Positions 1 through 18,764 of a stretch of DNA of 18,764 nt are shown here, piece by piece. Under the pieces are notes generated by a model, which was not told the origin of the DNA, searched no databases, and saw nothing but the letters and a program-made list of their open reading frames with translations. This stretch comes from Candidatus Bathyarchaeia archaeon (GTDB lineage Archaea; Thermoproteota; Bathyarchaeia; Bathyarchaeales; Bathycorpusculaceae): the NCBI GenBank assembly GCA_037481775.1, contig JBBFKZ010000026.1, positions 1-18,764 of the forward strand, written 5' to 3'. Numbering within the stretch: position 1 is the first letter of the stretch; each line of letters opens with the position of its first letter. Position numbers and translations under genes: made by a program.

Positions 1-1572
1 ATCTTTAGTCAGATAGTTTTCCCTTCGAGTAAAAAAGTACGCGCCTGTGATGAAGTCTCGGATGGCGCCAATTATTGGACCTCCAAATCTTGGCGAAAGT
101 ATCTGATCTTGGACTTGCATGAGCAAAAGAGCCTCTGTTTGGGCTTCCTCGCTCTGTGGTACATGGAGGTTCATTTCGTCACCATCAAAGTCAGCGTTGT
201 AAGGTGGACAAACGCACAAGTGCAAGCGGAAAGTTTTGTAAGGCAAAACACGCACATAATGCGCCATGATAGACATCCTGTGCAGCGAGGGCTGACGATT
301 GAATATTGCTATATCGCCGTTCTTAAGATGACGCTCTACAACGAAGCCTGGTTCTATGGCTTCGGCGATTTTTGTTCTGTCCACTACGAACTCAAGCCGT
401 ATGCGCTTTCCATCGGGTCTAATAATGTAGAGGGCGCCTGGATACTTGTCAGGACCGTTTATGACGAGTTTCTTCAGTTCCTCAATATTCCAAGTGGTTA
501 CTTTTTCAGGCACTGATAGGCGCATGGCCACATCCTGTGGAACGCCTACCTCGTTTATGTCAAGGTTTGGATCTGGAGAGATAACAGTTCTTGCAGAGAA
601 GTCAACTCTTTTACCTGAGAGGTTGCTTCTAAAGCGCCCTTCTTTTCCCTTCAACCTCTGCGAGAGAGTTTTTAAAGCCCGCCCAGATCGATGCCGCGCG
701 GGAGGTATACCTGAGGCTTCGTTGTTGAAGTAAGTTGTAACGTGATATTGGAGAAGTTCAGACAAGTCTTGAATTATAAGGGTTGGTGCTCCTGCTTCCA
801 TGTTCTCTTTAAGCCGCTGGTTAATGCGGATAATGTCAACAAGCTTGTGAGTTAAGTCATCTTCCGAGCGGATTCCTGACTCCAGCGTGATAGATGGTCG
901 AACGTAGACTGGAGGTACAGGCAAAACTTGGAGAACCATCCATTCAGGTCTTGCTACTTTGGGGTTGAATCCTAAAATTTCCAAATCTTCGTCTGAAATA
1001 CGCTCAAGTCTTTCTCTAATCATGCTTGGCGTTAACGGTTCAGAGCCTGTTTCTGTTTGCTCTGTGAACTTTGTGGGCTTCTCAAAAGTTATTTTGTACT
1101 GCGGAGCTGCACAATGGGGGCATTGTTTAGCCTTAATCTCTTGCATAATGCTCTTGTGCACTTCGTCAGGTATTGTGCCTAAGAGTGACTTGTATTTCTC
1201 GATGCGACCGCGAATTTTTTTCGCCGATTCTTCTGATAAAAGTATGCGACCGCAATTGCGGCATGTTGCTTTCAAAAGTTCATGGATTATCTTTGTAAAT
1301 TCTATGTGGACTATGGGCACCGCCAGTTCAATGTGTCCGAAGTGGCCGGGACAGCGAACCGCTGTATTACCGCATGTTTTACATCGCTGACGGGGCTCGA
1401 GGGTTCCTAATCGCCCATCCATCAGGCCTGCTGTGATAGGTGCTCCGTCTTCATCGTAAGTGTCGGGTGTTTGAATTTCTACAACTGATTGCTTTCTTAG
1501 GTCTTGGGGGGAAATTAAGCCGAAAGAGATTTCATCAACAACTTTATGAATTGGTTCTTCTGAAGACATCAT
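1..1572 (-). CDS. rpoA1: DNA-directed RNA polymerase subunit A' (Rpo1N), 3' end runs off the window
   Basis: Not in the ORF track because there is no stop in the window. Manual translation gives [22 protein letters not shown]...[36 protein letters not shown] (zinc site) and the catalytic [14 protein letters not shown] at ~165-206. The ATG overlaps the rpoB stop (ATGA); alternative start at 1569. Confidence 0.98.
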
Positions 1573-4500: not shown

Positions 4501-4934
4501 TCTTCCCTTGAAAGCTGCGAAAGGAAGCATAATTTTGACTTTAGCATAACAGGGATGCTTCCGATGTAAACCAGTTCAGTGTCTTGTTCCCTTCCATCGA
4601 TTACAGGTGTCATTTCAAGGGCTATGGGTGCTGCATACGTGAGATTCCGAAGCCTTGCTTCCATCGGGTAAATTTCATGTTTAGTGCCGTCTACCTCTGT
4701 GACATATGGCCCAGTTATACGCGATTGAGGATCAATAATCCAAACTTGTCCGAGCTTTACTTTATATGGACTTTCGGGAACTTCAATGTCGATTTCGCCG
4801 ACCTCGTCCACCACTTCCTGTAAGCCATGGTCTATGAACTCGTTGTATGAATCAAGGTGCTGCCTTACTAGGCCTTTCTCGTTGAAAAAGGATTTCAACA
4901 AAATGCGTGCATCTTCTTTTGAAAGTTCAGCCAA
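1569..4934 (-). CDS. rpoB: DNA-directed RNA polymerase subunit B (Rpo2), unsplit
   Basis: 1121 aa with [55 protein letters not shown] and a C-terminal CENC...CKIC zinc ribbon. TTG start preceded by GGAGATAGGT. Confidence 0.99.
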
Positions 4935-4975
4935 CTTTACCTATCTCCCACATTTTTTTAAATACGTAAACATGC

Positions 4976-4995
4976 TTTTTTTAAGCGGGTTTTTC
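4976..4995 (-). promoter_or_regulatory. candidate BRE/TATA promoter of the rpoB-rpoA1 operon
   Basis: Minus strand reads GAAAAACCCG-CTTAAAAAAA about 45-60 nt upstream of the TTG start. Confidence 0.35.
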
Positions 4996-5650
4996 AAACT
5001 TATGATTTCCTCCGTGTCGGAGTGACCAATTTGAAAAAGGGTCTCCTATCTTTAGAGAGCACAAACACATGCTACACCGCTTACTAATAAACTTTTTTAT
5101 GCACTTGGTAGTAAACCATGGCTTTTTTAAACTTTTTAGAGTATTGTACAATAATAGCTTTTTCATTAGTGTATTGCGCCCGCGAATTCTGAAGAAAGAG
5201 AATATTCACTATGAAAACGGAGATAACTGATAAACAAGCCTGATTTTGAAGAATACAAGAGTTTTGCGATTTTAATTAGCAGCGCCATTTCGCCTGTCTC
5301 GTGGCTTCGGGATTTTCGCTTTTATATCTCTGGACTTTAGAAGGAAGTCAAGTTCAGCGTCATTTTTACTTTAAACATATTAATGATGCGTGCTTGATTC
5401 CATTGGAAAAGCAACAGAATAGCCCCTCTATAGGTTTCTGCAATGAATCGCTAATATGCGCCAAATATGACGGTGCGGCTGGAGAGTTGGTTGTTTTTGG
5501 ACGGCGTTGTGTTACGTATTATTGTGCTATTCCTTTTTTTGTGGTGGTATTGGGATAGGATTTAACTTGGATTCTGATTCTGAATTCAGAGGGAGATTTC
5601 ACAACAAATATTCTTAAGCAAAAACAAAAGGGAACAGCTAGGGTTAAAAC

Positions 5651-7270
5651 TTGAACAAGATATCTGCAGGAAAAGAACAAAAACTACTAGCCATCTTAGC
5701 TCTAGCTACACTACTACTTTTTATGCAGCAACTTAACGTTACGGTGCAAGCGGCAACAGAGTACCAGAGATACGTCCACACATATTATAATACCCTTAAC
5801 CGTGGTAACTGGACTTACATTGAGAAGCCCATTTTCCCACTTTACCTTAACAAGTCACAAGTACCTATAGGACAGAACTGGACTACTGTTTGCCCACTGG
5901 AAGCCGGCCGCAGTTACCATGTGTACTGCTATGGTGCATGGATAAACACAGGCCCAAAGCCTAAGACAGACTATGACATCTGCGTCTATAACCCAGAAGG
6001 CGCATTAGAGAGCATACATACCGAAGCCGCTGGATTGCCGGAGCATTTGGGCACAACTGCGGATGACGCGTTCTTTGTACCTGCCAGCTCGGGTAACTAC
6101 ACCTTTGTGCTTATGAATGATGCGCGAGAGAGCTATGGTGCTGAACAAGCTACGTTTATGATAATAGAGAATATTGAATGTAACAAGTGGTATGAGCACA
6201 ATGTGACGGGAAAAATAGCTAACGTGCCGACGTTCAGAACTAGTTGGGCTTACGAGTTTATGACTGATAGTGAACGCATAGAAGTTTGGGTGCGCGTTCC
6301 CGACACGCTAGACATGTATGAAGCACGCCTTTATCTAATGAGCAACGCGAAGTCATTAAGGGTAAATAATGTTTCACTACCTTGGGAGCCTGGGCTCTAC
6401 GGCAACTTAAGCGACGTAGGCGGCTACAACCTTGAAAGTGAAGGATACCGTGGCGTAGCATACGCAAGCTGCGAGTTTAATGGTCAAGACATGTATCTGA
6501 ACTATACTCAGCCGTTTCCAGGCAACAATTTGTATCATTTGGTTTTAATTGGCGAACTTGGCGAGGGAACAATAGAATTTCTGGTTAAAACAAAGTTCGA
6601 CGCCGCCTTAATACCCTTGGCGATTCCCCGTAAAGTCACACCTATTGACTCGACAGAGATTGCATACAAGGCAAATAACACAGAGTTAGAGAACGCCACA
6701 CTTAGGTATACAGTTGACAATTGGAAGAATGTAAATGTGATAGAGATGACTGTTAGTAACATGACGTGCAACGCTACAATCCCGCAACAGAAAGCTGGCA
6801 GCTTCGTAGAGTATAAAGTTCAAGCAACAGACATGATGAAAAATCAACTCACCGCTGTGGGAAACTTTACAGTCAAATATCCCTCAGCTGTAACGGACTT
6901 TAATGTCACCCGCACAAAGGTGACTATAGGCGAAAATATAACAGCAATAGGAACACTGTCTGCCGAAGCCGCGGGTGCACCTGTAACAGTCACGTTTACG
7001 TCTGTAAACGCCACAGAAAAACTGCAGTGCAAAGCGCTTGAAAACGGCACTTTCACCGTGAGCTATCAGCCGTTGACCACTGGAACGTGGCTGGTTCAAG
7101 CTGCATTCGCTGGAAATGAAACCGTCTATGAGTGCGAGAGCGCGATTGTGATGGTAACGGTGGAGGAACCCTCATTCCTCTCCCTGTATGGACTATACAT
7201 TGGCGGCGGCGTCGGCGGAAGCCTAGCCGCAGCAGGCGCAGTAGTTTATATAAAGAAGTACAGAGAATAG
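5651..7270 (+). CDS. secreted, C-terminally membrane-anchored beta-rich glycoprotein (PPC-like and Ig-like domains), function unknown
   Basis: N-terminal signal peptide ending VQA. PPC-like motif TDYDICVYNPEG...GNYTFVL. Ig-like C-terminal domain (GTFTVSY...GTWLVQAAFAGN). C-terminal TM followed by KKYRE. More than a dozen N-X-S/T sequons. Confidence 0.8.
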   Translation: MNKISAGKEQKLLAILALATLLLFMQQLNVTVQAATEYQRYVHTYYNTLNRGNWTYIEKPIFPLYLNKSQVPIGQNWTTVCPLEAGRSYHVYCYGAWINTGPKPKTDYDICVYNPEGALESIHTEAAGLPEHLGTTADDAFFVPASSGNYTFVLMNDARESYGAEQATFMIIENIECNKWYEHNVTGKIANVPTFRTSWAYEFMTDSERIEVWVRVPDTLDMYEARLYLMSNAKSLRVNNVSLPWEPGLYGNLSDVGGYNLESEGYRGVAYASCEFNGQDMYLNYTQPFPGNNLYHLVLIGELGEGTIEFLVKTKFDAALIPLAIPRKVTPIDSTEIAYKANNTELENATLRYTVDNWKNVNVIEMTVSNMTCNATIPQQKAGSFVEYKVQATDMMKNQLTAVGNFTVKYPSAVTDFNVTRTKVTIGENITAIGTLSAEAAGAPVTVTFTSVNATEKLQCKALENGTFTVSYQPLTTGTWLVQAAFAGNETVYECESAIVMVTVEEPSFLSLYGLYIGGGVGGSLAAAGAVVYIKKYRE

Positions 7271-7288
7271 CCTAAAGGTCAAGTTGTG

Positions 7289-7304
7289 GGAAATAATTAA
7301 TAAG
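7289..7304 (+). promoter_or_regulatory. BRE/TATA promoter of the tRNA gene
   Basis: GGAAATAA-TTAATAAG ending 29 nt before the mature tRNA 5' end. Confidence 0.6.
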
Positions 7305-7332
7305 AAAGTCATTGAATTTTCTTAGTTTGTGT

Positions 7333-7451
7333 GCAGCGGTAACCAAGCCAGGTCAAAGGTGAAGGACTCAAGATCGACGCTTTGATCGAAGGCGCCCAGA
7401 TGGGATATCCTTTCCCGTAGGGGTTCGCAGGTTCAAATCCTGCCCGCTGCA
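7333..7451 (+). tRNA. tRNA-Leu (anticodon CAA) with an intron at position 37/38
   Basis: Acceptor stem GCAGCGG/CCGCTGC, D arm ACC...GGT, anticodon stem AAGGA/TCCTT with CT-CAA-G, long variable arm CCCGTAGGGG, T arm GCAGG-TTCAAAT-CCTGC, discriminator A at 7451. A full CCA is not encoded (ACCT). Confidence 0.96.
7373..7406 (+). other. 34-nt tRNA intron with a bulge-helix-bulge splice motif
   Basis: Central 4-bp helix CTCA(7367-70)/TGGG(7401-04), 3-nt bulges AG|A and AT|A, closing TC/GA pairs and an internal CGCTTT/AAGGCG hairpin. Confidence 0.9.
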
Positions 7452-7532
7452 CCTCAGAACTTCGTCTATGAGCGGGTAAGTTCAGATCGGCTTTCAGCAT
7501 TAAAGCAATCAACAGGGTTTATGTGCACAATT

Positions 7533-7576
7533 TTGTAATACAGTAATGTTTTTAGCTTTCCATGAAATTATTACAA
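7533..7576. promoter_or_regulatory. inverted repeat, probable vapBC autoregulatory operator
   Basis: TTGTAATA (7533-7540) and TATTACAA (7569-7576) bracket a T-rich TATA-like stretch just upstream of the antitoxin start. Confidence 0.5.
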
Positions 7577-7593
7577 CAGTAGTGAAAACATTT

Positions 7594-7815
7594 ATGTCTA
7601 CAACGTTTACGATACGCATACCTCGAGAACTTAAAGAGAAAATGGAGCAGAATCCTGCAGAATGGAGTCAAGAAGTCAGAGCTTTCCTTGAGGAAAGAGT
7701 GAAACAAATCGAATTGATGAAGACACTTCAAGAAATAGGAAAGCGAGCAGAAAAAAGGAAAACAAAAACAGACTCTACAAAACTCATCAGGGAGGACCGA
7801 GAACGCCAAGCCTAA
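7594..7815 (+). CDS. vapB: VapB-type ribbon-helix-helix antitoxin
   Basis: 73 aa from ATG 7594: MSTTFTIRIPRELKEKM...WSQEVRAFLEERV...STKLIREDRE, the typical archaeal RHH antitoxin pattern. Overlaps a PIN-domain gene. Confidence 0.88.
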   Translation: MSTTFTIRIPRELKEKMEQNPAEWSQEVRAFLEERVKQIELMKTLQEIGKRAEKRKTKTDSTKLIREDRERQA

Positions 7816-8237
7816 TTCTTGACTCTAGCATAATCGTGAAGCTTATTCTAAACGAAGCAGGCTCAGAAGAAGCCGCAGTAACAGTCGCCAACGCGCTAAA
7901 GAAAGGATACGCCCTCCACACAGTAGATCTTGCTTTAGCTGAATGCTTGAACGTCATATGGAAGCACATAAGCATAATTAAAGATTTGAAAGCAGAAGAG
8001 GCAAACGGTGCAGTAGAAGACCTTACAAAACTATATGATGGCTTAAAGGTTATTGTTGGGCGTGAAATTGCGGCGGAAGCTATGCACGTTGTGTTAGCCC
8101 AAAACATAAGCGCTTATGACGCACTTTATATCGCAGCAGCACAGAAAATCAACGGCACATTATACACTGCAGACCAAAAACTCTATGCGTTGGCAAGCAG
8201 AAGCGGAAACACAAAATTATTAAAGAGCGAACCATAA
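7803..8237 (+). CDS. vapC: VapC-type PIN-domain toxin (start uncertain, upstream of the ORF-track GTG at 7836)
   Basis: In-frame extension gives (T)PSLILDSSIIVKLILNE. All four acidic PIN positions are present: LILD, LAEC, SAYDAL, LYTAD. Confidence 0.9.
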   Translation, partial: TPSLILDSSIIVKLILNEAGSEEAAVTVANALKKGYALHTVDLALAECLNVIWKHISIIKDLKAEEANGAVEDLTKLYDGLKVIVGREIAAEAMHVVLAQNISAYDALYIAAAQKINGTLYTADQKLYALASRSGNTKLLKSEP

Positions 8238-8418
8238 AATAGGCACCGCCAAAAATTCTTCGCCCTCCCTATATAAGAGGACACAAATGATATTATGCGT
8301 TAATGAGCACAAACTCATGGTCTGCTCAGGTCAACAGGCACTATCGACGGCAGTACGCATGGCACGTGTGACTTCAAGTTTTTGCAAACTAACAAAGTAA
8401 AACCAAACAAACCACGTA

Positions 8419-9186
8419 TTAAAGGCTAAAGGCAGGCTCAGAAGCAATCGAAGCCAGAAGCCGATCGGCAGCCGCTTCCTGTTCTGCTGTGTCGCTGATG
8501 GCAAGCCAGCAGCATCCTTCTGCGCCGCAGACGCCGCCGGCAGCTATTAGTTCAGCATCCGCGCCTGTTAGAAGTTTTATAGCTTCGATTTCGGTGAATA
8601 CTTGCCCGGGCATGGGGAATAGGCGGAAGCCGCTTGCGCCGGGCGCGTTAACCTTTTCAGCTAAGCAATGTAAGTCGCCGTTTACGCGTTTTTCCAAGCC
8701 AACGGGCACGATGAGCTTTACGCGGCGGCCGAGCACTGCTTGAAGTGCCACGGCGATGGTGCCTGCTTTCGGGTGCCCTATGAGGAGGGCTGCTTGCTTG
8801 CGTTGTAGATCCACTGCATTGGCGCCTTTCAGTATGACGTCGCCTTCTTTGAGTTCGTCGATTACGTCGGCGATGGTTTTGCCTTTGCGCCATTCGCCTC
8901 GGGTTATTATTACATCGCCGGGGAATTGGGTTTCGTCGTGTAATCGGCCTTCTGTGGTTACTGGTATGCCTGGCGGTAGGGTGATGCCGCGGAAAAAGCG
9001 TTTCCGTGAAAAGCCTGCGGCTTGTCCGATTGAGTTTAGGATTTCTTCGGCTACGTAGCCGTTTGTGGTGCCAGCGACGATGACGAGTGTTCCATTCTTT
9101 AGAGCGCTTGTTACTGCTGGGTGTTTTGTTAGCGCTTTAGCTATTAGGCGTTTTCCGGCTGCGGGTGTGATTATGAATTGTTTCAT
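8419..9186 (-). CDS. conserved hypothetical protein, probable NagB/RpiA/CoA-transferase-like alpha/beta fold
   Basis: 255 aa soluble protein with [27 protein letters not shown] and LIVPVGLEK, resembling the eIF2B/RpiA-like superfamily. The fold is inferred. Confidence 0.7.
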
Positions 9187-9289
9187 AGGCTTGTACTTCC
9201 TTCAGAGTCTTGCGGTAGTATTGTTTTTTGGTGGTAATTAAGTTCTACTGTTGAGCACGTGCCTCTTTAGGAAGACTTTGTTTGGCGTG

Positions 9290-9348
9290 TAGGCTATTTG
9301 TTCGTCAGTTGCAGCGTTGCGTGGCTGGCAGAATAGCTGACGACACGG
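9290..9348. repeat. 59-bp structured direct repeat, copy 1
   Basis: TAGGCTATTTGTTCGTCAGTTGCAGCGTTGCGTGGCTGGCAGAATAGCTGACGACACGG; 48/59 identical, ungapped, to 10019-10077. Confidence 0.85.
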
Positions 9349-9408
9349 TTGTTGAATGTTTTGCTGGATTTTTGTTGTGTATTTGTGTAGTTCATTTCGA
9401 CAATAAAA

Positions 9409-9416
9409 TTTATTAA
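9409..9416 (+). promoter_or_regulatory. TATA box for the 9456 gene
   Basis: TTTATTAA after an A-rich BRE-like run, 40 nt upstream of an ATG that has an AGGAGAG SD-like motif. Confidence 0.55.
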
Positions 9417-9455
9417 GACTTAAGACTAGCTACTTGATACAAAGGAGAGCAAACA

Positions 9456-9905
9456 ATGAGCCTGGCAAAACTCTCAACAAAAACACTACTACTCATAATA
9501 ACCACAGGAGTAATCCTAACCGCCGTCACTACAGGTGCACTTACAGTAACCAAACCAATACCCGCAACAGGCACCATATCAACAATAAACTTAGAAGCCT
9601 ATTTAGACGTTGCATGTAGCCAACCCGTAACATCGATAGACTGGGGAACTATCTCGCCGGGAGCCACAGTAACCAGAACAGTATACTTAAAAAACACTGG
9701 TAGCGTACAAATGACGCTCAGCATGACGCCAAGCAATTGGAGCCCGACAAGCGCAAATGGACCAATAACTATTTTTTGGGATAAAGAAGGTGCAACTTTG
9801 CCGCCTGGTCAAACAACAGCGGCAGTCATTACACTACGTGTCTCAAGCAGCATCAGTGGCATCACAAGCTTCAGCTGCAATATAGTCATAACGGGAACAG
9901 CGTAA
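9456..9905 (+). CDS. small secreted all-beta protein, TasA/CalY-like candidate
   Basis: 149 aa, Thr/Ser-rich. Hydrophobic N-terminus, then GTISTINLEAY and IDWGTISPGATVTRTVYLKNTGSV. Paralogous to 16913-17482. Confidence 0.75.
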   Translation: MSLAKLSTKTLLLIITTGVILTAVTTGALTVTKPIPATGTISTINLEAYLDVACSQPVTSIDWGTISPGATVTRTVYLKNTGSVQMTLSMTPSNWSPTSANGPITIFWDKEGATLPPGQTTAAVITLRVSSSISGITSFSCNIVITGTA

Positions 9906-9915
9906 AACAACATCC

Positions 9916-9927
9916 TTTTTCTTTTTT
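9916..9927 (+). terminator. oligo-T archaeal terminator
   Basis: TTTTTCTTTTTT 10 nt after the stop of the 9456-9905 gene. Confidence 0.6.
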
Positions 9928-10018
9928 AAGCCACAGCAACAGAAAAAGCTCGATGGACGCATAAAGCAAAGCAGTGCATGCGTTAAGTCTAAAAATTGAA
10001 AAATCAAGAGGCAACATT

Positions 10019-10077
10019 TAGGCTATGTGTTCGTCAACTGCAGCACCTCACGGCTGACAGAATCGCTGACGACACGG
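10019..10077. repeat. 59-bp structured direct repeat, copy 2
   Basis: TAGGCTATGTGTTCGTCAACTGCAGCACCTCACGGCTGACAGAATCGCTGACGACACGG; imperfect hairpin GTGT-T-CGTCA...CAGC-N8-GCTG...TGACG-ACAC. Confidence 0.85.
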
Positions 10078-10257
10078 GTTTGGTAGCAGTGCATTATGTC
10101 ATGAATTAGGCTGTTGTGCAGAAGTTTGTTTTCGCGGCTTAGTTTACACTTATGGAATGATTCTGTTGAGAGGGGTAACCGGGAAAGTTATAAAATGTTT
10201 CTTGCGGAGTAGTTGCGGCCTATTAGAGGAATAATTGGTTATGTAAAAGTTGATCAG

Positions 10258-10821
10258 CTAGTGATCTGAACGTCGGTAACGCAGTGGCGGAAAATTTTCA
10301 ACGGCAAAAGAGAAGGTATACAACTCAAGGAAGACCATTCGTAGCTGATCGAACTCATCCATACGCTTTTTGGCTTCGATTGGTTGCTGGCTGGCTTTTT
10401 GTTTGGACCATGCCTCGTAGGCGGCTTCCCATTTCCTCAAGTACTCCATCGGTTCGATGCTGCATATCATGAATAGCTTTTTAAGTCGTTTGAGCAGGAC
10501 GGACTGCTTTTTCTTGGGAATGAAGATGCGGGCTATTTCTGCGTATTGGTTCATTAGTTCAACAGCTTCATCTAGCCTGTTCTGTTCTTTCAACAGTTTT
10601 GCCCTTTCGTAGTACTCGGTGAACAGGTTAATGCGCAGGTAGCCTATCTGCGTTAAAAGGAAGCGCTTCTTTTCCCTTGGTTTAGCGTTGCTTTTAAGGA
10701 ATTGTTTTAGCCAATTCTCGTTTATCAATGGAAAGTCGAATTGCCTGTTTCTGACGGCAGCCTTGTTCAGCTCGTCAAGTTTCTGCTTAAGTGTTTGAAA
10801 AAGTTCTTCAAGTTCTTCCAA
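10258..10821 (-). CDS. hypothetical highly charged alpha-helical protein
   Basis: 187 aa, K/E/L-rich and protein-like, with a TATA-like TTATATGT upstream. No family recognised. Confidence 0.65.
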   Translation of the reverse strand: MEELEELFQTLKQKLDELNKAAVRNRQFDFPLINENWLKQFLKSNAKPREKKRFLLTQIGYLRINLFTEYYERAKLLKEQNRLDEAVELMNQYAEIARIFIPKKKQSVLLKRLKKLFMICSIEPMEYLRKWEAAYEAWSKQKASQQPIEAKKRMDEFDQLRMVFLELYTFSFAVENFPPLRYRRSDH

Positions 10822-10876
10822 GGTTTTTTCTTTTAATTTTAAGCCCTCCCCTCGAAAAGCGTTTCAGGCTCTACAT

Positions 10877-10892
10877 ATAATAAGCTTATTAT
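10877..10892. promoter_or_regulatory. 16-bp perfect palindrome overlapping a TATA-like box
   Basis: ATAATAAGCTTATTAT, overlapping minus-strand TTATATGT (10873-10880) upstream of the 10821 gene. Confidence 0.45.
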
Positions 10893-10906
10893 TAGGTTTG
10901 TGTGGG

Positions 10907-11107
10907 CTAGAAAGGTTGGAAGATTCGCATAACAACTGTAGCCATGAAGGCTATCCCTAAGGCTAAGGCTACAACTCGGAGGCGCTTTTTTTCGATCATA
11001 ATCTGCGGTTCTGTGATGGAGCTTATTATTTCTGTGGTTATAAGCAGGATTATCGCCATGACGGCTAGCCAAAGGCTTATGTCGGATAAAGTCATTGGAA
11101 AATTCAT
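10907..11107 (-). CDS. small two-TM membrane protein
   Basis: 66 aa with two hydrophobic helices separated by EPQIMIEKKRLR. ATG lies 2 nt after the upstream gene's stop. Confidence 0.8.
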   Translation of the reverse strand: MNFPMTLSDISLWLAVMAIILLITTEIISSITEPQIMIEKKRLRVVALALGIAFMATVVMRIFQPF

Positions 11108-11109
11108 TG

Positions 11110-11964
11110 TTAGCTCTCCACCAGCTGATACCAGAGTTCAACTGTCTCGCCATCAGGCACTATATTGTCCTTCTGGAGGGTAACTGTTTTTCCTGAGGCT
11201 TTGGCTATGGCGCATGCAATGGCGCTTGCAAGCGGGCAGCCTAGATAGTGTATGCTCTTAAGCTCTTCTGTTATGTAGAGGTTTCGATACGGCGAACCTA
11301 TCATTTTGAGGTAAAATCCGTTGTCTTCCTGTTTTATTTCCACTTCTTTTGCCAGTTGCAGGTTTTCAGTTATCAGCGGCGGCAGGATTTCTAATAGTTC
11401 GGTTAGTTGGAGTTTTGTTATGTCTCTTTTCAGTTCTTTTTCCAGCTGTTCTAGCAAGCCTAATCCTGGTGGAGCCACGCAGATGCCGTTTGGGTTTTCG
11501 AGTAGGAATTTGCTTTTGGCTAATTCCTCGATGGATGGCATTCCGCTGGTGCTTGCAGAGATGAAGACTACGCTTTCCTTGAGTCCTTTTAAGTGCTGTG
11601 GGAGATATACATCCTTCGGGTAAGAGGGGATGTAGTAGGCTTTTCCGGTAATTTGTAGGTCTCGGAGTATTCTGTCTGTGGTTAAGTACTCTGATAAGGC
11701 TGTTGAGGTGAGCATGCTGCTTGCGACATATCTTGCGGGTTTTATGAAGAAGAAGAGGACTCCCCAGAAGGTTAGGCTTAAGCCGATGAATGCGAGTGTA
11801 GTGGAATTTGCTATTATGGCATATGCTAATGCCAGTGCTCCTGGAATTAGAAGCGCTAAACCCACTTTTACCGAGGGTACATTGGCCTTGCCTGATTTTG
11901 CCTTCGGATTTTCAACCACGTTTTTTTGAGGGGCAATTTCAGTGTTTTGATTTTGCGCGCACAT
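11110..11964 (-). CDS. membrane-anchored protein with a V4R-like C-terminal domain
   Basis: Two N-terminal TM helices, then a soluble domain with APPGLGL and GCPLASAIACAIAKASGK, reminiscent of V4R/heme-NO-binding-like folds (inference). Confidence 0.7.
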   Translation of the reverse strand: MCAQNQNTEIAPQKNVVENPKAKSGKANVPSVKVGLALLIPGALALAYAIIANSTTLAFIGLSLTFWGVLFFFIKPARYVASSMLTSTALSEYLTTDRILRDLQITGKAYYIPSYPKDVYLPQHLKGLKESVVFISASTSGMPSIEELAKSKFLLENPNGICVAPPGLGLLEQLEKELKRDITKLQLTELLEILPPLITENLQLAKEVEIKQEDNGFYLKMIGSPYRNLYITEELKSIHYLGCPLASAIACAIAKASGKTVTLQKDNIVPDGETVELWYQLVES

Positions 11965-12054
11965 TTTGTTTTACTGCTCGCTTTTTTGGTTGGCTGTCTC
12001 ATGAGCTTTTTGCTCTTGATGGAGATGGCTTCGTTCCTATTAAGTTTTCAGAAA

Positions 12055-14106
12055 TTAAATCAGACTTTTCCAAACAAGTTTTGGCTTGATTCCGCTGGCA
12101 TTGAGGTCGGGTTTTATGAAGCCGTATTCGTGTAGGCGTTTTAGTTTTTGCGTGAGAATATCTGGTTGCATGGTGCTTCCGGTTTTGTTTTTGATGGCGT
12201 TGTTGATTTCTTCGATTGTAAAGGCGTGTTTTTCTTTGCTTAGCTCGGAAATTGTTTGGAGTAGCATTTTGTCTTCCGGTGAGGCGAAGTTATTGAAGAT
12301 TTTTAGGTTGCTTGTTCTTCTACGCCAGTCGTCGGCATATTGCGATGTCTTCGCGACTATTATTACGGCTATGGAGAGAGCTAGAAGTGCTTGTTGGGCG
12401 GGGATGCCTAGTGATATTAGCGATTGGGTTTTGATTGGCTGCCAGTGTGAGGCTATGGCTTCTCCGAAGCTTAAAAGTTTGTCCTCATATTGTGGATAGC
12501 CTGTTGTGTTATATGTTAGGATTACGAGGCTTATACGCACATATTTTTGTTGTACTGTGAGGCCGGTTTTGAACGTTGCTTTCTCATACCAGTAAAGCGT
12601 TACTTGCGTGTAGTTTTCGGGTGTGGTGAAAACGAGGTATCGTGCTGTTATCGGAAATCCTTCTTCGGTTAATTGTATGTCTTTGGAGTCTATGACGGAA
12701 ACTATGGGGTATTTGCCTTGCGCGGTTTGGTAGGAGATTAGGCATACTTCCCAGTTGTGTAGGTTTGAGATGCTGTCTGCGCTGCCAATCATGACGAAGA
12801 CGGCTGGTTCTGAGGAGTTCGCTGGAATGTATGCGTATACCAGCGAGGCGTCTTGTTTTGCGATTCGTTCGTATTCAACGTCGCGATATAGGAATTTAAG
12901 GGTATAGTCTGGGATTTGTGGGAAGATGTTTGCGGTGTTTTCCCATGTTGAGGTAACTTCTATCTGGTTTTGTGCAACGGCGAAGGTTGGCGCGTTAATG
13001 CTTAAGGCTACTGCGGGAAGCACCAGCAATAGAATAAGTAGTTTTGCCCAGAATTTTGAAGAAGGCTTCGCCGGCGAGGTAGCGAGGAATTTTCCGCAGT
13101 TCAGGCAGAAGCTTTGGTTTTTTTGTGGTTTTTCGCATTCTGGGCAGGAGGTAGCTGCAGTTTTTTGTAGGAAGCGTACTTTTAGAAGTTTTTCGGCTAT
13201 GAAGAGGGTTATGAGCATGCCGATGAATGTTAGGATTAAGCCGGCAATGGTGTGGAAGATTAGCATGGCGATTTCTTCGCCGAAGAGGTAGGCCGCGGAG
13301 AGTATGGTGGATATGCGGACTATGTTTAATGTTTCGAATATGGCGAAGCCTATGGCGAAGATTAGCAGTTTCTTTATGGTTGATGTGGAGACGATTAGGG
13401 TGAGGAAGAATGCGAACATGATGAAGGCTATCAGCGTGTATATGCCAGAGCACGGCAGGTCAACGGTGAAAGTGGCAGGCTGACCTCCTACAGTCGTGAG
13501 CAGCAGTGTTGGTGCTCCGTAGGCTGTAGTTAATTCGACGGGGACACCAAAGGTTTTGAGCAGCGTGTAGGAGGCTTGGGTGTTAACATTCGCCAAGTTT
13601 CCGCCTATTGTCTGCATGATCTCGTTGGGTATGGGCACTAAGAATAGAAGGATTAAAAGGGGTAGGATGATTATTCTTAATGTTTTCATGTTAAAGAGGA
13701 TGAGTACCACGCCTGAGATGAATAGTGGTAGGGAAAGTAAGTGATATGCTAGGGGGCTAAAAGTGTGAGAGCCATACCAGTAGATGAGGAAAGCGATGAG
13801 ACAAAGACTTAATCCAACAAGCTCGTCCATGAACTTGATTTTTGGCTTTTTCTGCACTTCATCTAAGACTAGTGAAGCTGTGAACAAGTCTTTTCTCTGG
13901 TATAATAGGAAGCCTAAGAAAAAGGGTATTAGAACAACATGAGAAAGAGCTTCCGCGTTTAGCGCTTCGTTTGCGATGATTTCTAGGTCACGCCAGTAAA
14001 CCAGAACAATTAGCAATATTATTAGCGCAGTTGCCAGAATATGTGGATAGTAGACTTTTGCCTCATTTACTGATTCGGTAAGCTTTCTCATAAATGTTAC
14101 ATCCAT
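12055..14106 (-). CDS. exosortase/archaeosortase family protein fused to zinc-ribbon, EpsI-like and wHTH-like domains
   Basis: About 8 N-terminal TM helices with the triad motifs VDLPCSG (Cys at 13450-52), LNIVRI (Arg) and IFHTIAG (His), plus SHVVLIP and LVPIP. Then CPEC...CLNC, a TM, an extracellular domain with LHNWEVCL and LYWY, another TM and a basic helical C-terminus. Start could be 14091. Confidence 0.9.
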   Translation of the reverse strand: MDVTFMRKLTESVNEAKVYYPHILATALIILLIVLVYWRDLEIIANEALNAEALSHVVLIPFFLGFLLYQRKDLFTASLVLDEVQKKPKIKFMDELVGLSLCLIAFLIYWYGSHTFSPLAYHLLSLPLFISGVVLILFNMKTLRIIILPLLILLFLVPIPNEIMQTIGGNLANVNTQASYTLLKTFGVPVELTTAYGAPTLLLTTVGGQPATFTVDLPCSGIYTLIAFIMFAFFLTLIVSTSTIKKLLIFAIGFAIFETLNIVRISTILSAAYLFGEEIAMLIFHTIAGLILTFIGMLITLFIAEKLLKVRFLQKTAATSCPECEKPQKNQSFCLNCGKFLATSPAKPSSKFWAKLLILLLVLPAVALSINAPTFAVAQNQIEVTSTWENTANIFPQIPDYTLKFLYRDVEYERIAKQDASLVYAYIPANSSEPAVFVMIGSADSISNLHNWEVCLISYQTAQGKYPIVSVIDSKDIQLTEEGFPITARYLVFTTPENYTQVTLYWYEKATFKTGLTVQQKYVRISLVILTYNTTGYPQYEDKLLSFGEAIASHWQPIKTQSLISLGIPAQQALLALSIAVIIVAKTSQYADDWRRRTSNLKIFNNFASPEDKMLLQTISELSKEKHAFTIEEINNAIKNKTGSTMQPDILTQKLKRLHEYGFIKPDLNASGIKPKLVWKSLI

Positions 14107-14178
14107 AATAGCTTAAGTTGAAAAATAACAATGGACTAATTTAGGGATTATTCTTCGAAAAAAGTAAAGAAAGGTAGG

Positions 14179-14748
14179 TTAAATTGGCAGAGATCGGGGT
14201 TTTCGTAATGCCATGTAAGCGCCAAAAGCGACTATCATTGCAGTTGTCGCTATCACGGTACCTAACGGAACCTCGGGGATAACCTGCTCTGGAACATTCC
14301 AGCAGAAAGTCACATGAGAAATGCCCTTTCCGGCCGGTGCGTCCAGATCTGTATCGCCAGTGGTTGGTGGAATATATTCATATAAATAAGCTGTTGATAG
14401 GCCGCCGCTGGAATCGCTTTCGCTATGCCTCCCTGTTTCGGCTCTCCCCGTTTTGACTATTACCGCGCTGATAGGCAGTGTTGACGTCCAATTAAATGTA
14501 TAGCCGTCTTTGCTGGTAACGGTTATAGTGTTGCCGTTGACTGTTGCAGTGAAGGAATTAGGAGAATCTTCAACCCAAGAGTCAAACTTGTAGCTATAAC
14601 TGAAACTTGAAGCATAAACTTGCTCCCAACTATTTGACTATGGAGATATAAGTGTTGGTGTAACCGAAGCAGCCATTGCAGTTGCAATTCCTACTGTCAA
14701 AAGAAGCATCGTTATAATAAACCCTATACTAGCAGATTTGTTTTTCAC
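14179..14748 (-). pseudogene. secreted protein with a VIPEVPLGTV sorting tail, interrupted by an in-frame TAG at codon 37
   Basis: Manual translation from GTG 14748: MKNKSASIGFIITMLLLTVGIATAMAASVTPTLISP*SNSWEQ...SAVIVKTG...GKGISHVTFCWNVPEQVIPEVPLGTVIATTAMIVAFGAYMALRKPRSLPI. 190 codons in one frame, TAG at 14638-14640, GAGGAG SD-like motif upstream. Confidence 0.85.
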
Positions 14749-14786
14749 TTCCTCATTTCTCCTCATTTAAGTAAAGCGAAAACGCA

Positions 14787-14794
14787 CTATATAA
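14787..14794 (-). promoter_or_regulatory. TATA box for the 14748 gene
   Basis: Minus strand TTATATAG about 40 nt upstream of the GTG start. Confidence 0.55.
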
Positions 14795-15105
14795 GAGTTT
14801 ATAGATAAGTAATATAGAAAAGTTTGAATTTGTTCTATTCTTACGCAGTTTTGATATTCGAAAATGCAAGTTTTTAAGTCATTTCAATTAGACTTTTAAT
14901 ATTACAAAACCCCGATTCATTATCGGATTTATCTATTGTAGCTGAACACGGAATGCCCAGAAAAACAGGCGCAAAGCAAAAATGTATAAGTGTAAATGTA
15001 GAAACAAAAACAGAAAAAAGTTCTTCAAGGGTTTTTCAAAGCCCGCTTCAGCCTAAACTCGTGCCTTCTTAGGAAGGGTTCATTACCATTGAACCGACAA
15101 GCTTA

Positions 15106-16002
15106 CTAAGGGATGTTTAGCTTGAGTTTTTTAGTCTTTGCTATGAAAGCGAGGAAGCAGGCGCCAACCGCGGCTACTGTTCCCAAAGGCAGTTCTGGAA
15201 TAACATTGATTTCTTTCAGCACACAGAGGTTTGTTGTTGTGGTTAATCCTATCTGATCGTCTATGCCAATTAGGTCTTGAGTGCAATCGCTGTGGAGGTA
15301 CTGCGTCGGCCAGACGCCTCGGGTCCAAGCCTTAACTTTTATTACCGTTCCGATTTGGGATGGAGCTGTTAAAGTTACTGCTGCTATGCCTGTAGCATCA
15401 GTTAAAGCCTCAAGTTGGCTTAGTGTTCCACCCACCGCCTCGAATTTAATCTTGACATTGGCTCTGCCGTTGCCGTTGCCATCTGCGAGTTTGACTTTCA
15501 ATACCACGCTTTCACCTGGGCCCATAACGTTCGGCGCATTAACCCATTGCAGGGTATCGCCGTTTCGGCAGACATCCTTGCCTGTGGCTTCCGCAGCAAG
15601 AGAATTACCATATGGTGAAGGGTTAGAGCCGCTGAGGATTTTCCAAATGGCGCCTTGAACATCAGCTGCTTCATCATTGCTTTGCGGCGGATCATGCCAT
15701 GAGAGGACATAGGCAATAGCACGCCAAGTAGGCGTATCTGGGGCGCTCGTCTTGGTGAATGTGTAGGAGTGCCCGATGTAGAGATTGACGTTGTATTCCA
15801 TGCAGTATGCCCTAGTAGATGTACCAGAATATTGGATGAGGATTTCTCCCGCCCAGTAAGTTTTATTATAATTGTGCGTAAACGTTTTGCCTTTGCCTGT
15901 TCCGGAGACGTATACGTTAACTGTTTGTGCGGCAACTGTTGAAATGCACAGGATCACTGCTAATAGGCTTAATGCAGTTAAAGCAAATACACTTCTTCTC
16001 AT
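15106..16002 (-). CDS. secreted thioester-domain (TED/TQXA-like) surface protein with an Ig-like insert and a VIPELPLGTV sorting tail
   Basis: Likely start ATG 16002 (GGAGAAGG upstream; signal peptide MRRSVFALTALSLLAVILCISTVAA). Motifs RAYCME, DVQGAIWKIL, invasin/Big-like TDATGIAAVTLTAP and TQDLIG, then NVIPELPLGTV-TM-KTKKLK. Confidence 0.8.
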   Translation of the reverse strand: MRRSVFALTALSLLAVILCISTVAAQTVNVYVSGTGKGKTFTHNYNKTYWAGEILIQYSGTSTRAYCMEYNVNLYIGHSYTFTKTSAPDTPTWRAIAYVLSWHDPPQSNDEAADVQGAIWKILSGSNPSPYGNSLAAEATGKDVCRNGDTLQWVNAPNVMGPGESVVLKVKLADGNGNGRANVKIKFEAVGGTLSQLEALTDATGIAAVTLTAPSQIGTVIKVKAWTRGVWPTQYLHSDCTQDLIGIDDQIGLTTTTNLCVLKEINVIPELPLGTVAAVGACFLAFIAKTKKLKLNIP

Positions 16003-16042
16003 TTGTGAAGCCTTCTCCGAGCATGAGCTTTGATGCGGCAAG

Positions 16043-16050
16043 TATTTAAA
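16043..16050 (-). promoter_or_regulatory. TATA box for the 16002 gene
   Basis: Minus strand TTTAAATA about 40 nt upstream of ATG 16002, which supports the shorter start. Confidence 0.6.
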
Positions 16051-16118
16051 CATTGATGAAAGAGGCTTATAGAACAAAGCAAAAATGTTCCATACGTCCA
16101 GTTTACTGAGCGTTATTC

Positions 16119-16802
16119 TCAGAGCGCCGACTTCAAAATTGCCTTGAAGATTTTGAAGCCGTCGGGTAGCGTTTTAAGCCTTGAAACGCCGTTTGCGCGT
16201 TTTTTGCAGCTTATTGGGATTTCTACTAATTTGAAGCCGTTTTTTAGGCTTTTTACTGTTAGCTCTGTTTCAATGTCGAAGCCGTCGGATTCTAGGCTTA
16301 TGTGCTGTAGGAAGTCTTTTTTGAGGGCTCTTAGGCCTGTTTGGCTGTCGGTGATTCTTTTTCCTGTCAGAACCATTATTGTTGCGTTGATGAGGCTGTT
16401 TCCGAACTGGTGAACACTGGATGTGTGGTCTTTTGCTTGGCCTAGGAAGCGCGAGCCGGCTACCACATCGGCGCCGTCAAAAAGCGGAGTTATGAGGTCG
16501 GGGATTTCTTTTGGGTTATGTGATCCGTCTGCGTCGATGGTTATGATTATGTCGCCTTGGGCGTGCTCGAGACCTTTTCTTAGGGCGTAGCCCTTCCCGC
16601 GGTTGCGCGGGTAAGAGACTACTTGAACCTTGTATCTGCTGGCTACTTCTCTTGTGCGATCCTTGGAGCCGTCGTCTACGACGAGGATTTCGTATGGCAT
16701 CTTCAGCGTTTCCAATACTTGCATGGTCTCCTCTACAACATTGCCTATGGATTTTTCTTCGTTATAGGCTGGAATGATAACAGAGAGCACGCTGCGTTGC
16801 AC
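16119..16802 (-). CDS. family 2 glycosyltransferase, DPM1/polyprenol-phosphate glycosyltransferase-like
   Basis: SVIIPAYNEE, VVDDGSKDRT, NRGKGYAL, IDADGSH (DXD), DVVAGSRF, TDSQTGLRA. Probable GTG start at 16802 after a G-rich SD. Confidence 0.95.
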   Translation of the reverse strand: MQRSVLSVIIPAYNEEKSIGNVVEETMQVLETLKMPYEILVVDDGSKDRTREVASRYKVQVVSYPRNRGKGYALRKGLEHAQGDIIITIDADGSHNPKEIPDLITPLFDGADVVAGSRFLGQAKDHTSSVHQFGNSLINATIMVLTGKRITDSQTGLRALKKDFLQHISLESDGFDIETELTVKSLKNGFKLVEIPISCKKRANGVSRLKTLPDGFKIFKAILKSAL

Positions 16803-16912
16803 GAAGACCCCCCTTTCTCTAAACTTGTAAGGTAGGCTTACTTGCAAATAAGGTTTTATGAAGAAAGCGTATAGAAAAGTTTTGAGAATGATCTATAGGA
16901 TACTTCTTGTTT

Positions 16913-17482
16913 TTAATCTGAAGGTAAAGCCTTGATGGTTATGTCAAAAGCAAATTCTTTCACGTTGTTATCTATTACGTAAGTTAAGAAGGCGACATCT
17001 GAGGAGAGGGCTAGGCTTATGGTTACGTAGACTGATTCGCGTGGGTTTATGATTGTATCGTTGTAGTTCCAGGTTATTTTTAGTGGTTGGCTTATGGGTA
17101 GCTGTATGGTAACGTTTTCTCCGCGGTTGTTGCGGAATGTGAAATTTGAGGTAGTGAGGTTCAATTTTATGGGTATGTTGCTTTGGCTCTTAATGTAGAA
17201 GGAGTTGTTTGCTATAGTGCCTAGGTAAAGTGTGCCCCAGTCGAGGTATTGGTGGCCGTCTTGGCTTAGGTGTATGTCTCCGCCGTAGGCTTCTACGCCT
17301 ATTACGCGGATTATGCCGAAGCTGGGGAAGCTTGTGTTGTGATAGCTGCTTAGCCAGATGGAAGCCAACATGCTTAGAAGCAAAGTTAAGCCTGAAACGA
17401 TTACTATTAGCAGTATGGTTTTCTTTGAGCGATGAAGTAGCTGGAGCAGCGAGTTAATGTAATACTTCAATTCATAAACCAT
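16913..17482 (-). CDS. secreted or membrane-anchored beta protein, paralog of 9456-9905 (TasA/CalY-like candidate)
   Basis: N-terminal TM, then GIIRVIGVEAY, LDWGTLYLG...FYIKSQSNIP, ITWNYNDTIINP...VTISLALSS, FAFDITI. Several N-glycosylation sequons. Confidence 0.75.
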   Translation of the reverse strand: MVYELKYYINSLLQLLHRSKKTILLIVIVSGLTLLLSMLASIWLSSYHNTSFPSFGIIRVIGVEAYGGDIHLSQDGHQYLDWGTLYLGTIANNSFYIKSQSNIPIKLNLTTSNFTFRNNRGENVTIQLPISQPLKITWNYNDTIINPRESVYVTISLALSSDVAFLTYVIDNNVKEFAFDITIKALPSD

Positions 17483-17523
17483 CTCATTTAATACATGCGA
17501 AAGCCTAAATAGTTACCGGAAAA

Positions 17524-18764
17524 TTATGCGTGGATCCCAGCGGCGCCTAAAATTTTCTCCATTGCTGCGAGGGGATGTTTAGAATTTTTGAGATTAACCC
17601 TAAGCCTGAGAAGAGGTTTGTCAGATTTTTTATGTCGCTTGAGGTTATGGCGCCGATGAGCGGCGCTAAGCTCAGATACGCCAGTATGAAGGCGACGCCG
17701 CCTATGGCGAGTTCTATCCAGTCTGCGAATGCAGTAAGGCTTATTGCGAGGAAAGCTACGGCGGCGGCTATGGCTGCGGCAGCGAGGATCTTAAGTGAAG
17801 CGGCGAGGTTGATTTTGGCGTTATAGTTTTTCCAAACCCAATGCAATCCGATAAATATGGCTGGAGCCCTAGAAGCTATGCTTCCTATTATTAGTCCGAC
17901 TATTCCGTATGTGGGAATTAGCAGGAAGGCTAAGGGTATGCCGAATGCGAGTGTTATGAGGCTTAGTTTCATTTGGATTTTTGTTTCGTCGATGCCTGTG
18001 AGGAAGCTGCCTATGCTGAGGTTGCCGATGAGGGCGTGGAGGTTGCCGATTACGTATAGGGTTAGTAAGTATGGTGCGGTGGCCCATTTCTCTCCGAAGA
18101 TGGTGCTTATCATCGGCTGTGAGAGCGCCATCATTGCGGTTGTTATTGGAACTAAAACTATTGTGGTGTATTTAACTGAGGATTCGAAAACGGTTTGCAG
18201 TAGTTCGCTTTCTTCATGCGGGTTTATTTTTGAGAATGCGGAGAAGAGCACTGTTGAGATTGGGGTTGTGATGAATGTTAGTATGGTGGCGAATTGGGTT
18301 GCGACTTGGTAGTTTCCGATTGCGGCGTCTGTGCAGTAGATTACCATCAGGAAGGAGTAGAATTATAGTAGAAAGCCGCTTATGATGCCTGCTATTGAGA
18401 GGGGAAACCGTAGTTCAGCATGGCTTTCAGGGTTTGAATGACGCTTGTTTTTTGTGTGTTGTTTGGCTTCAGTTTGCGGGTTATTTTTAGGTAGAGCAGT
18501 AGAAGGCTGATTGCGGCTGCGGCTGCGAAGGCTATGGTGTAGCCGATGGTTGCGCCTAGGGCGCTTAATCCCAGAAACACGAGCAGCGGTGAAGCAACGG
18601 TTTTTACGGCGGCTTGAAGGATGTTGGTTATACTTGTTAGCGCCATTCGCTCGAAGCCGGTGAAGCACGCTTGCGCCGCAGTTAGCAGTGCGCCTGTGAG
18701 TATGGTGGTGGAGGCTATGGCGATGAGCGGTGCTGATTCGGGTCTGTTGAAGATGGCAGTGGAG
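17524..18764 (-). pseudogene. oligosaccharide/polysaccharide flippase (Wzx/RfbX, MOP superfamily), 5' end outside the window, apparently disrupted
   Basis: Continuous multi-TM sequence (FNRPESAPLI...FTGFERM...MLNYGFP|LSIAGIISGFLL*FYSFLMVIY...IGNYQVA...LLIPTYGIVG) broken by a frameshift at G4 18401-04, a TAA at 18363-65 and a probable frameshift at G4 17571-74. Confidence 0.85.

Follow-up and report, generated by a model that had tools for sequence, protein, structure and literature searches.

Exosortases and the EpsI region associated with them have been known since 2006. Archaeosortase A (ArtA), which serves the PGF-CTERM system of haloarchaea, belongs to the same superfamily and removes a C-terminal transmembrane (TM) signal from surface proteins. 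The catalytic role of conserved Cys, Arg and His residues is known from work on ArtA and XrtA. To our knowledge, ArtA carries no EpsI-like domain, no zinc ribbon and no winged helix. Here we describe an archaeal protein of the exosortase family in which a catalytic core is followed by a zinc ribbon, a remotely EpsI-like domain and a winged helix. The gene (12055..14106, minus strand, 683 codons) lies in a stretch of 18,764 nucleotides from Candidatus Bathyarchaeia archaeon (assembly GCA_037481775.1, contig JBBFKZ010000026.1, positions 1 to 18,764), referred to below as the window. The genome comprises 1.82 Mb on 54 contigs and is 96.7% complete. Named homologues of the open reading frame (ORF) come almost exclusively from Bathyarchaeia.

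The closest described systems are bacterial EpsH-EpsI fusions of the PEP-CTERM system (TIGR02602 plus TIGR02914). In the 2006 report by Haft et al., EpsI figures as a region of unknown function that is fused to, or encoded beside, some bacterial EpsH proteins (PMC1569441). This description agrees with the original prediction for the window, made from the letters alone, that fusion to EpsI is a bacterial exosortase trait. Those fusions and the archaeal protein have in common an eight-TM core with Cys, Arg and His, a TM segment and an extracytoplasmic domain of the EpsI type, as well as glycosyltransferase and flippase neighbours and a substrate signal made up of a P-E motif, a TM segment and a basic cluster (PMC1569441). 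There are also differences. The host is an archaeon, whereas the 2006 text records no PEP-CTERM in Archaea (PMC1569441). The protein reaches no named Xrt subfamily, and its likeness to EpsI is sub-threshold. It has three additional parts, namely a zinc ribbon, a further TM segment behind the EpsI-like domain and a winged helix on the cytoplasmic side. Finally, the putative signal reads [VI]PE-x-P-[LI]-G instead of PEP and occurs in only about three candidate substrates in the genome. Compared with archaeosortases, the protein fits exosortase models better (ArtC 25 bits), and an archaeosortase-like protein is encoded separately on contig C11 of the genome.

Both the class of enzyme and its fusion to EpsI are already known, while the archaeal setting, the second TM segment, the zinc ribbon and the retained cytoplasmic winged helix are undescribed in the literature searched. 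We found no account of an exosortase with this architecture there, papers in subscription journals being outside the coverage. Our proposal, to which we give about an even chance, is that the protein is a dedicated Bathyarchaeia exosortase with ten TM segments, and that its winged helix serves as a cytoplasmic protein-contact or regulatory module and not as a sequence-specific DNA-binding transcription factor. Family membership, conservation, gene neighbourhood and, from AlphaFold2 models, the folds of winged helix and middle domain are shown; we infer the topology, the substrates and what each of the three extra modules does. One polypeptide that joins an enzyme, an EpsI-like domain outside and two cytoplasmic modules, and that is encoded beside its likely substrates, would be a compact system for two questions, namely what an EpsI-type domain does and whether a sortase can communicate with the cytoplasm. 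It would also widen the range of PEP-CTERM-like signals, here of the IPE-x-PLG type, to take in abundant uncultured archaea of sediments and hot springs.

Catalytic core, predicted topology and distribution

The original prediction had outlined the fusion as 12055-13150, which is the right gene but covers only residues ~320-683; the gene extends to 14106, and the extra modules make up the C-terminal half of this single ORF (12055-14106, minus strand). All sequence elements it had quoted are present in the translation, including CPEC-x9-CLNC, HNWEVC, YWY, two hydrophobic spans and the strings of the tail. Their conservation, described below, shows that they did not arise by chance. Since homologues and a 678-residue database entry begin at a methionine five codons after the ATG at 14106, translation probably starts at this residue (M6, position 14091).

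The protein is a member of the exosortase superfamily, as had been predicted. Residues 31-304 (13195..14016, minus strand) form the catalytic domain with eight TM segments and score 114.8 bits with PF09721 (Exosortase_EpsH), whose cut-off is 25.7; TIGR04178, the exosortase/archaeosortase signature, scores 50 bits against 23. C219 (in a PCSG motif), R264 and H285 are invariant among 31 aligned homologues, the alignment to which all statements of invariance below refer unless another set is named. The models of named Xrt subfamilies stay below their cut-offs (XrtW 92.4 against 425, XrtA 80.4 against 208, XrtD 59 against 400), as does 8TM_EpsH (60.3 against 105.6).

Membrane topology was derived by hand from a 19-residue Kyte-Doolittle hydropathy scan and the positive-inside rule. 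This procedure identifies the eight segments of the core, followed by TM9 (residues 352-370; 12997..13053, minus strand; hydropathy peak 2.37) and TM10 (residues 566-587; 12346..12411, minus strand; placed by hydropathy and alignment), the latter carrying two conserved polar residues (QQ or QN) towards its outer end. If the N-terminus is inside, TM6 has the catalytic cysteine at its outer end, where enzymes of this class should have it, so that the active site of the core would face the outside of the membrane. The Lys/Arg-rich loops 70-89, 240-246 and 306-351 are placed inside, the last of them containing the zinc ribbon. Residues 371-565 are placed outside and the tail (residues 588-683), which begins with WRRR, inside. 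Averaged over 67 homologues, the stretch of 21 residues that follows TM10 has a charge of +4. Hydropathy, charge distribution and this basic stretch are consistent with the cytoplasmic location that the original prediction had assigned to ribbon and C-terminal domain; an extracellular tail is not what the scan predicts.

The architecture is widely conserved. The C-terminal 374 residues match 397 clusters at 90% identity (E<=1e-3); the 120 matches listed are mostly ~680 residues long and cover 94-100% of the query except for a few shorter entries, and those with a named source are annotated as exosortase or archaeosortase of Bathyarchaeia. HMMER, run exhaustively over 1.84 billion representatives, returned 272 clusters at 50% identity with E<=1e-3, 205 of them with E<=1e-10. 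Among the HMMER matches listed, 69 representatives (50% identity clusters) have at least 600 residues; local hidden Markov models detect the middle domain in every one of them and the tail in all but one (68). Of 401 sampled genomes of the phylum, 17 contain the gene, as a single copy each, including 9 of 25 genomes from the family to which the window belongs. Scanning one genome per species across all prokaryotes gave 80 loci. Bathyarchaeota, Bathyarchaeia or Bathyarchaeales is the label of 68, Brockarchaeota of one, and Nitrosocaldus, Nitrosothermus, Nitrososphaerales, Nitrosopumilales or Thaumarchaeota of six; the remainder bear general labels (Thermoproteota archaeon, uncultured archaeon) or an odd label on a short contig. 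Members on short contigs labelled Sulfotelmatobacter, Nanoarchaeia, Methanocella and Fervidobacterium (loci L065, L091 and L097; protein P0008) are probably binning errors rather than transfers.

The tail is present at 78 of the 80 species loci, in the same ORF at 77; one of the two misses sits at a contig end, and the other has room for a tail but gives no match. Members from Brockarchaeota and Nitrososphaeria retain it at 24-33% identity. The architecture is fixed across Bathyarchaeia, Brockarchaeota and thermophilic Nitrososphaeria. Word-index searches for relatives of the C-terminal half that stand alone or are labelled EpsI found only fragments of the family itself, mostly cut off by the ends of short contigs and none with PF11984. 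A tblastn search of plasmids with the exosortase core gave no match.

The EpsI-like middle domain

Between TM9 and TM10 lies a polar stretch of ~195 residues (371-565; 12412..12996, minus strand) with the motifs H450-N-W-E-V-C455 and Y505-W-Y507. The original prediction had compared these motifs with the H-x-P-x-x-C and YWY motifs of EpsI. H450, W452 and E453 are invariant, as are Y505 and W506. Distant members keep H-x-W-E and Y-W but have lost the cysteine of HNWEVC, so that the first motif holds for the family only in its shorter form. A nearly invariant N-Y-T sequon (N498) in the same domain would fit a location outside the cell.

An AlphaFold2 (AF2) model of the domain (predicted local distance difference test score, pLDDT, 88.4) is an alpha/beta sandwich. 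VIA-align places it in the fold class of Mog1, PsbP, DcrB, Tsi3 and LpqN, with Z scores of 8.0-8.6 in the top eight matches that are middling in height but consistent in class; Foldseek gave weak and mixed matches. At E<=10 the query itself has no match to TIGR02914 or to PF11984 (DUF3485), which represents EpsI in Pfam, and NCBIfam searches with the middle domain alone or the tail alone returned nothing relevant. These observations would suit another reading, in which the middle domain is an independent Mog1/PsbP-type sensor unrelated to EpsI and the protein a signalling sortase that senses a ligand outside. The fold class is indeed common to unrelated envelope proteins such as the PknH sensor domain, LpqN and DcrB (Z 7.5-8.6, again middling).

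We consider this sensor highly unlikely. PF11984 matches three of 16 homologous middle domains and is the top family for these three. The best match (E 3.1e-4) reaches 20.9 bits against a cut-off of 26.1, and the alignments are colinear, protein positions 25-157, 44-155 and 54-157 corresponding to profile positions from 27, 48 and 56 to 154. When the 401 genomes were scanned in six frames, PF11984 gave one match at E<=0.01, and it falls exactly in the middle domain of one homologue; the genome of the sortase itself gave none. A feature search of the ESM Atlas, which we treat as a lead only, ranks DUF3485 clusters first (0.87-0.88), and the ten best family-bearing matches share family or clan with this top match. 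The position also corresponds to that in bacterial EpsH-EpsI fusions (PMC1569441): the domain follows an EpsH-type core, is led by TM9 and is predicted to be extracytoplasmic. TIGR02914, on the other hand, matches none of the 16 homologous domains, and no member exceeds a curated cut-off for EpsI/DUF3485. We regard the middle domain as probably EpsI-like, by remote homology and position, and not as a member of EpsI under curated thresholds; to this extent the assignment in the original prediction stands. In our proposal this domain would help to hold the substrate or its acceptor outside the membrane.

The zinc ribbon and the winged-helix tail

The predicted cytoplasmic loop between TM8 and TM9 contains the ribbon CPEC-x9-CLNC (13090..13152, minus strand; residues 319-339). 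Its layout, C321-P-E-C324, nine residues and C334-L-N-C337, corresponds to two Cys-x-x-Cys knuckles, and all four cysteines are invariant. Zinc-ribbon models of Pfam match below cut-off (Zn_ribbon_3, E 0.0094), and the loop is basic, with six Lys/Arg against two Asp/Glu. The C4 form occurs in 34 of the 69 representatives. In another 21 the first knuckle is a Cys/His variant, and the remaining 14 have no match in the loop window; some of these 14 reflect offsets of the window, and several are truly free of cysteine. The ribbon that had been predicted is present in the query, but its C4 form is not universal.

The tail after TM10 (residues 588-683, 96 residues; 12058..12345, minus strand) comprises a basic helix and a winged-helix core (about residues 609-683; 12058-12282, minus strand). 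Its translation reads DKMLLQTISEL...TIEEINNAI...LTQKLKRLHEYGFIK...PKLVWK. The AF2 model, built from an alignment of the 67 sequences, has a mean pLDDT of 90.6. In it, a helix adjacent to TM10 is followed by H1 and a short strand, then by H2 and H3, and finally by a beta hairpin. With helices at tail positions 23-38, 44-55 and 61-74 and strands at 41-42, 77-82 and 89-94, this is the canonical order H1-b1-H2-H3-b2-wing-b3. The Foldseek matches listed against the PDB are winged-helix proteins, with weak E values (at least 2.4e-3) and probabilities near 1, and include Stf76, Cdc6/ORC, PadR, MarR, Fur and ArsR. VIA-align, an independent all-against-representatives search, is likewise dominated by winged helices (Z 8.5-10.4). 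Model and both searches agree that the C-terminal ~75 residues fold as a winged helix, as the original prediction had read them.

The neighbours of this fold point in two directions. Those that bind DNA are PadR, Fur, MarR, QsrR and Cdc6/Orc1; those that bind protein are the WHB domains of APC2 and Cul1, the C-terminal domains of RPA32, Scc1 and ORC2, and Stn1. The C-terminal winged helix of Cdc6/Orc1 (PF09079) matches the whole 96-residue tail including the preceding helix, and it and the protein-binding winged helices (cullin/APC2 WHB, RPA32C, kleisin C-terminal domain) match the tail with Z 9-10. In contrast to these, however, no member of the family reaches the Pfam cut-off or has an AAA+ context, and identity is 6-15%. 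The query tail exceeds the cut-off of no winged helix-turn-helix (wHTH) model in Pfam or NCBIfam, its only Pfam matches being DUF5958 (18 bits; cut-off 23.6) and Stork_head (E 0.11). Among the 67 members, Cdc6_C appears below threshold in six (best E 7.6e-4), MCM4_WHD in two and HTH_12 in one. The profile of the tail finds nothing significant among PDB sequences; the best match is the DNA-binding domain of Nur, of the Fur family, at E 0.016.

The original prediction proposed that this domain, tethered to the membrane, binds DNA and so couples surface-protein sorting to transcription or chromosome positioning. A tail of this kind would link the state of the sortase to transcription of the surface locus, or anchor DNA at the membrane. 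Its attractions are the canonical fold, the presence of Stf76, PadR, Fur, MarR and Cdc6/Orc1 DNA-binding domains among the top fold matches, the Cdc6_C and Nur matches just described, and the basic core of the clade to which the query belongs (+1 to +12). The 2006 report lists PrsK and PrsR as dedicated transcription regulators of the bacterial PEP-CTERM system (PMC1569441), and a regulatory link therefore has precedent.

The family-wide sequence pattern does not bear this proposal out. Over the 78 species loci with a tail, the charge of the core ranges from -6 to +12, with 27 at or below 0 and 28 at or above +4; its median among the 67 homologues is 0. The stretch that holds the recognition helix (H3) has a median charge of -1 and a typical sequence of LLEKL-x-EAEE-x-GL, and most members have D-[DE]-E-P in the wing loop. 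Basic or polar contact residues are usually retained in established DNA-binding wHTH families, whereas this family has none conserved on recognition helix and wing, the only invariant charged residue of the tail being K93. Neither the query nor any of the 67 members belongs to a curated DNA-binding wHTH family. The region upstream of the gene, compared with that of the closest relative, shows TATA-like conservation and no obvious shared palindrome, which with two sequences only is a weak test. ToxR and CadC offer a comparison. In these proteins, a TM segment keeps a winged helix next to the cytoplasmic side of the membrane and connects it with an extracytoplasmic domain. Their DNA-binding domain is N-terminal, of the OmpR type and with conserved basic recognition residues, and is not known to be fused to an enzyme. 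In the sortase, the winged helix is C-terminal, follows a ten-TM enzyme and is devoid of conserved basic surface residues.

Taken together, the sequence evidence leans against a conserved DNA role. We consider DNA binding by the tail, and with it the tethered DNA-binding domain as a whole, to be unlikely; a coupling of sorting to transcription or chromosome positioning through DNA binding is not supported, given the charge of H3 and wing, the lack of a wHTH family and the protein-binding fold neighbours. A protein-interaction winged helix that does not bind DNA now appears to be the likelier case. In this case, winged helix and zinc ribbon would make contact with proteins on the cytoplasmic side of the membrane, whether to dock, gate or regulate the sortase or to hold on to a partner or to the cytoplasmic tail of a substrate. 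Candidate contacts of the two modules are the basic tail of a substrate, the neighbouring DUF7982 protein, the glycan machinery and the enzyme's own loops. A complex prediction for the tail with the cytoplasmic part of the DUF7982 protein gave an ipSAE of 0.01 in both runs; made without controls, it carries no weight either way.

What is conserved in the tail would also be compatible with a purely structural function, in which winged helix and zinc ribbon act as a clamp or dimerisation module that fixes TM9, TM10 and the EpsI-like domain against the core and has neither ligand nor partner. L655, L658, Y661, P675 and W679 are invariant, and the positions that are invariant family-wide are those of the hydrophobic core, a proline and the W-K of the last strand (P-x-L-V-W-K). 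Surface charge drifts freely, and the tail always occurs within the same polypeptide, no stand-alone family having been found. Against such a clamp, a folded domain of 75 residues that is kept in 78 of 80 species and in three archaeal lineages would be a costly solution. Furthermore, members without the ribbon may still have the winged helix: no ribbon match was found in 14 of the 69 representatives, as opposed to one without the tail. We judge a purely structural role to be rather improbable.

Several points also weigh against the protein-contact module that we prefer. In the clade of the query, as judged by the 15 closest sequences, the basic core (+1 to +12) would suit binding of nucleic acid or acidic lipid. 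Many of the top fold matches of the modelled tail are true DNA binders (PadR, Fur, MarR, Cdc6/Orc1), and six of the 67 members touch Cdc6_C and two MCM4_WHD, although below cut-off. The homology of the middle domain to EpsI reaches no curated threshold. The topology with its ten predicted TM segments was derived by hand from hydropathy. Finally, the substrate assignment described below depends on adjacency and motif in a genome that encodes a second sortase on contig C11.

A further possibility, to which we assign a slim chance, is that the sortase also serves for signalling. The membrane-held winged helix would then be latent, and its availability would track the load of substrate outside, so as to report sorting to gene expression. 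It would bind nucleic acid or a factor, and the signal would pass through the EpsI-like domain and TM10. Alternatively, the signal could arise by cleavage at TM10, which resembles a sorting signal in having a polar motif, a TM segment and a basic cluster. TM10 as a mimic of the IPE sorting signal has a place only within this slim possibility; its GIPAQQ sequence is limited to the close clade, and distant members read ISQNG.

The surface-assembly locus and candidate substrates

The sortase gene belongs to a string on the minus strand that encodes a flippase, a TM plus immunoglobulin (Ig)-like protein, a family-2 glycosyltransferase (GT2), two secreted proteins, the sortase and a DUF7982 protein. 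The two secreted proteins are its likely substrates. The larger one (15106..16077, minus strand, 323 residues) is Ig-like and thioester-domain-like, with weak matches to the Pfam families Big_1 and TED, and ends in VIPELPLGT, a TM segment and KTKKLK. The smaller one (14179..14766, minus strand, ~195 residues) has a signal peptide and ends in VIPEVPLGT, a TM segment and RKPR. A third candidate ORF on contig C11 ends in VPEYPIGS, a TM segment and RRTKR. These are the three ORFs in the genome that end in PE-x-P-[LI]-G, a TM segment and a basic tail, and two of them adjoin the sortase. The genome thus contains a putative cognate signal with the tripartite layout typical of exosortases and a P-E core like that of PEP-CTERM. 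In nine of 16 loci, similar [VI]P[ED] signals, picked by eye, are no more than 10 kb away from the homologue; of the seven loci with none, two are short contigs.

In our proposal, the sortase would cleave the [VI]PE-x-P-[LI]-G, TM and basic-tail signal of a few adjacent secreted Ig-like proteins at the outer face of the membrane and pass the cleaved proteins to a surface acceptor that the locus itself produces. The setting would be a small locus for glycan and surface assembly with GT2, flippase, Ig-like membrane proteins and DUF7982.

The gene for the ~195-residue protein is open except for a single in-frame TAG (14638-14640) just after the signal peptide. This TAG recurs in the contig of an independent sequencing run; the closest genome carries an uninterrupted ortholog. 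A pyrrolysine codon is not supported: none of 36 tRNAs has a CUA anticodon, and PylS stays below cut-off in this 96.7%-complete genome. The gene is likely a nonsense allele or a pseudogene, read-through of the TAG being less likely.

The neighbouring genes recur to different extents in 15 related loci. The flippase, of the Wzx/MurJ type (PF13440 5.4e-14, PF03023 4.5e-9), is represented by its C-terminal part (17547..18347 and beyond, minus strand) and found in four of them. GT2 (16119..16847, minus strand; PF00535, E 1.3e-35) is found in eight. The TM plus Ig-like protein, recognised from its translation (16913..17482, minus strand, 189 residues), combines an N-terminal TM segment with an Ig-like domain and is found in six. 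A similar small protein is encoded at 9456-9905 (plus strand); it and the product of 16913-17482 show weak likeness to 'choice-of-anchor D' domains, and the two recur near the sortase in six to seven of the 15. The DUF7982 protein (11110..11964, minus strand, 284 residues), assigned by ESM Atlas (0.97 to DUF7982 clusters), has two TM segments and a predicted cytoplasmic domain of ~210 residues. Its gene lies directly downstream of that of the sortase, and BLAST detects it in eight of the related loci, directly or nearly downstream in seven.

The second sortase of the genome (contig C11, about 43070-43900; locus L016:1300-2463) is archaeosortase-like, comprises 387 residues without extra domains, scores 43 bits with TIGR04178 and weakly resembles thaumarchaeosortase and ArtC. 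Seventeen scattered ORFs of 818-921 residues end in motifs of the ETYFA, ETYVLG or D-I-Y-F-V-P type, followed by a TM segment and LRKR; they look like a separate and larger set of substrates. Within the window, a secreted Ig-like protein of 539 residues (5651-7270, plus strand; Big_3_5, Filamin) has a different anchor, EEPSF followed by a glycine-rich TM segment and KKYRE.

The window also encodes archaeal rpoB and rpoA'. An unsplit rpoB (1121 residues) and the start of rpoA' occupy 1-4934 on the minus strand, 7 kb from the sortase, a proximity that by itself is no indication of a functional link. A VapBC-like toxin-antitoxin pair lies in between, consisting of a basic ribbon-helix-helix-like ORF (7546-7815, plus strand) and a PIN protein (7836-8237, plus strand; PF01850, E 1.1e-9).

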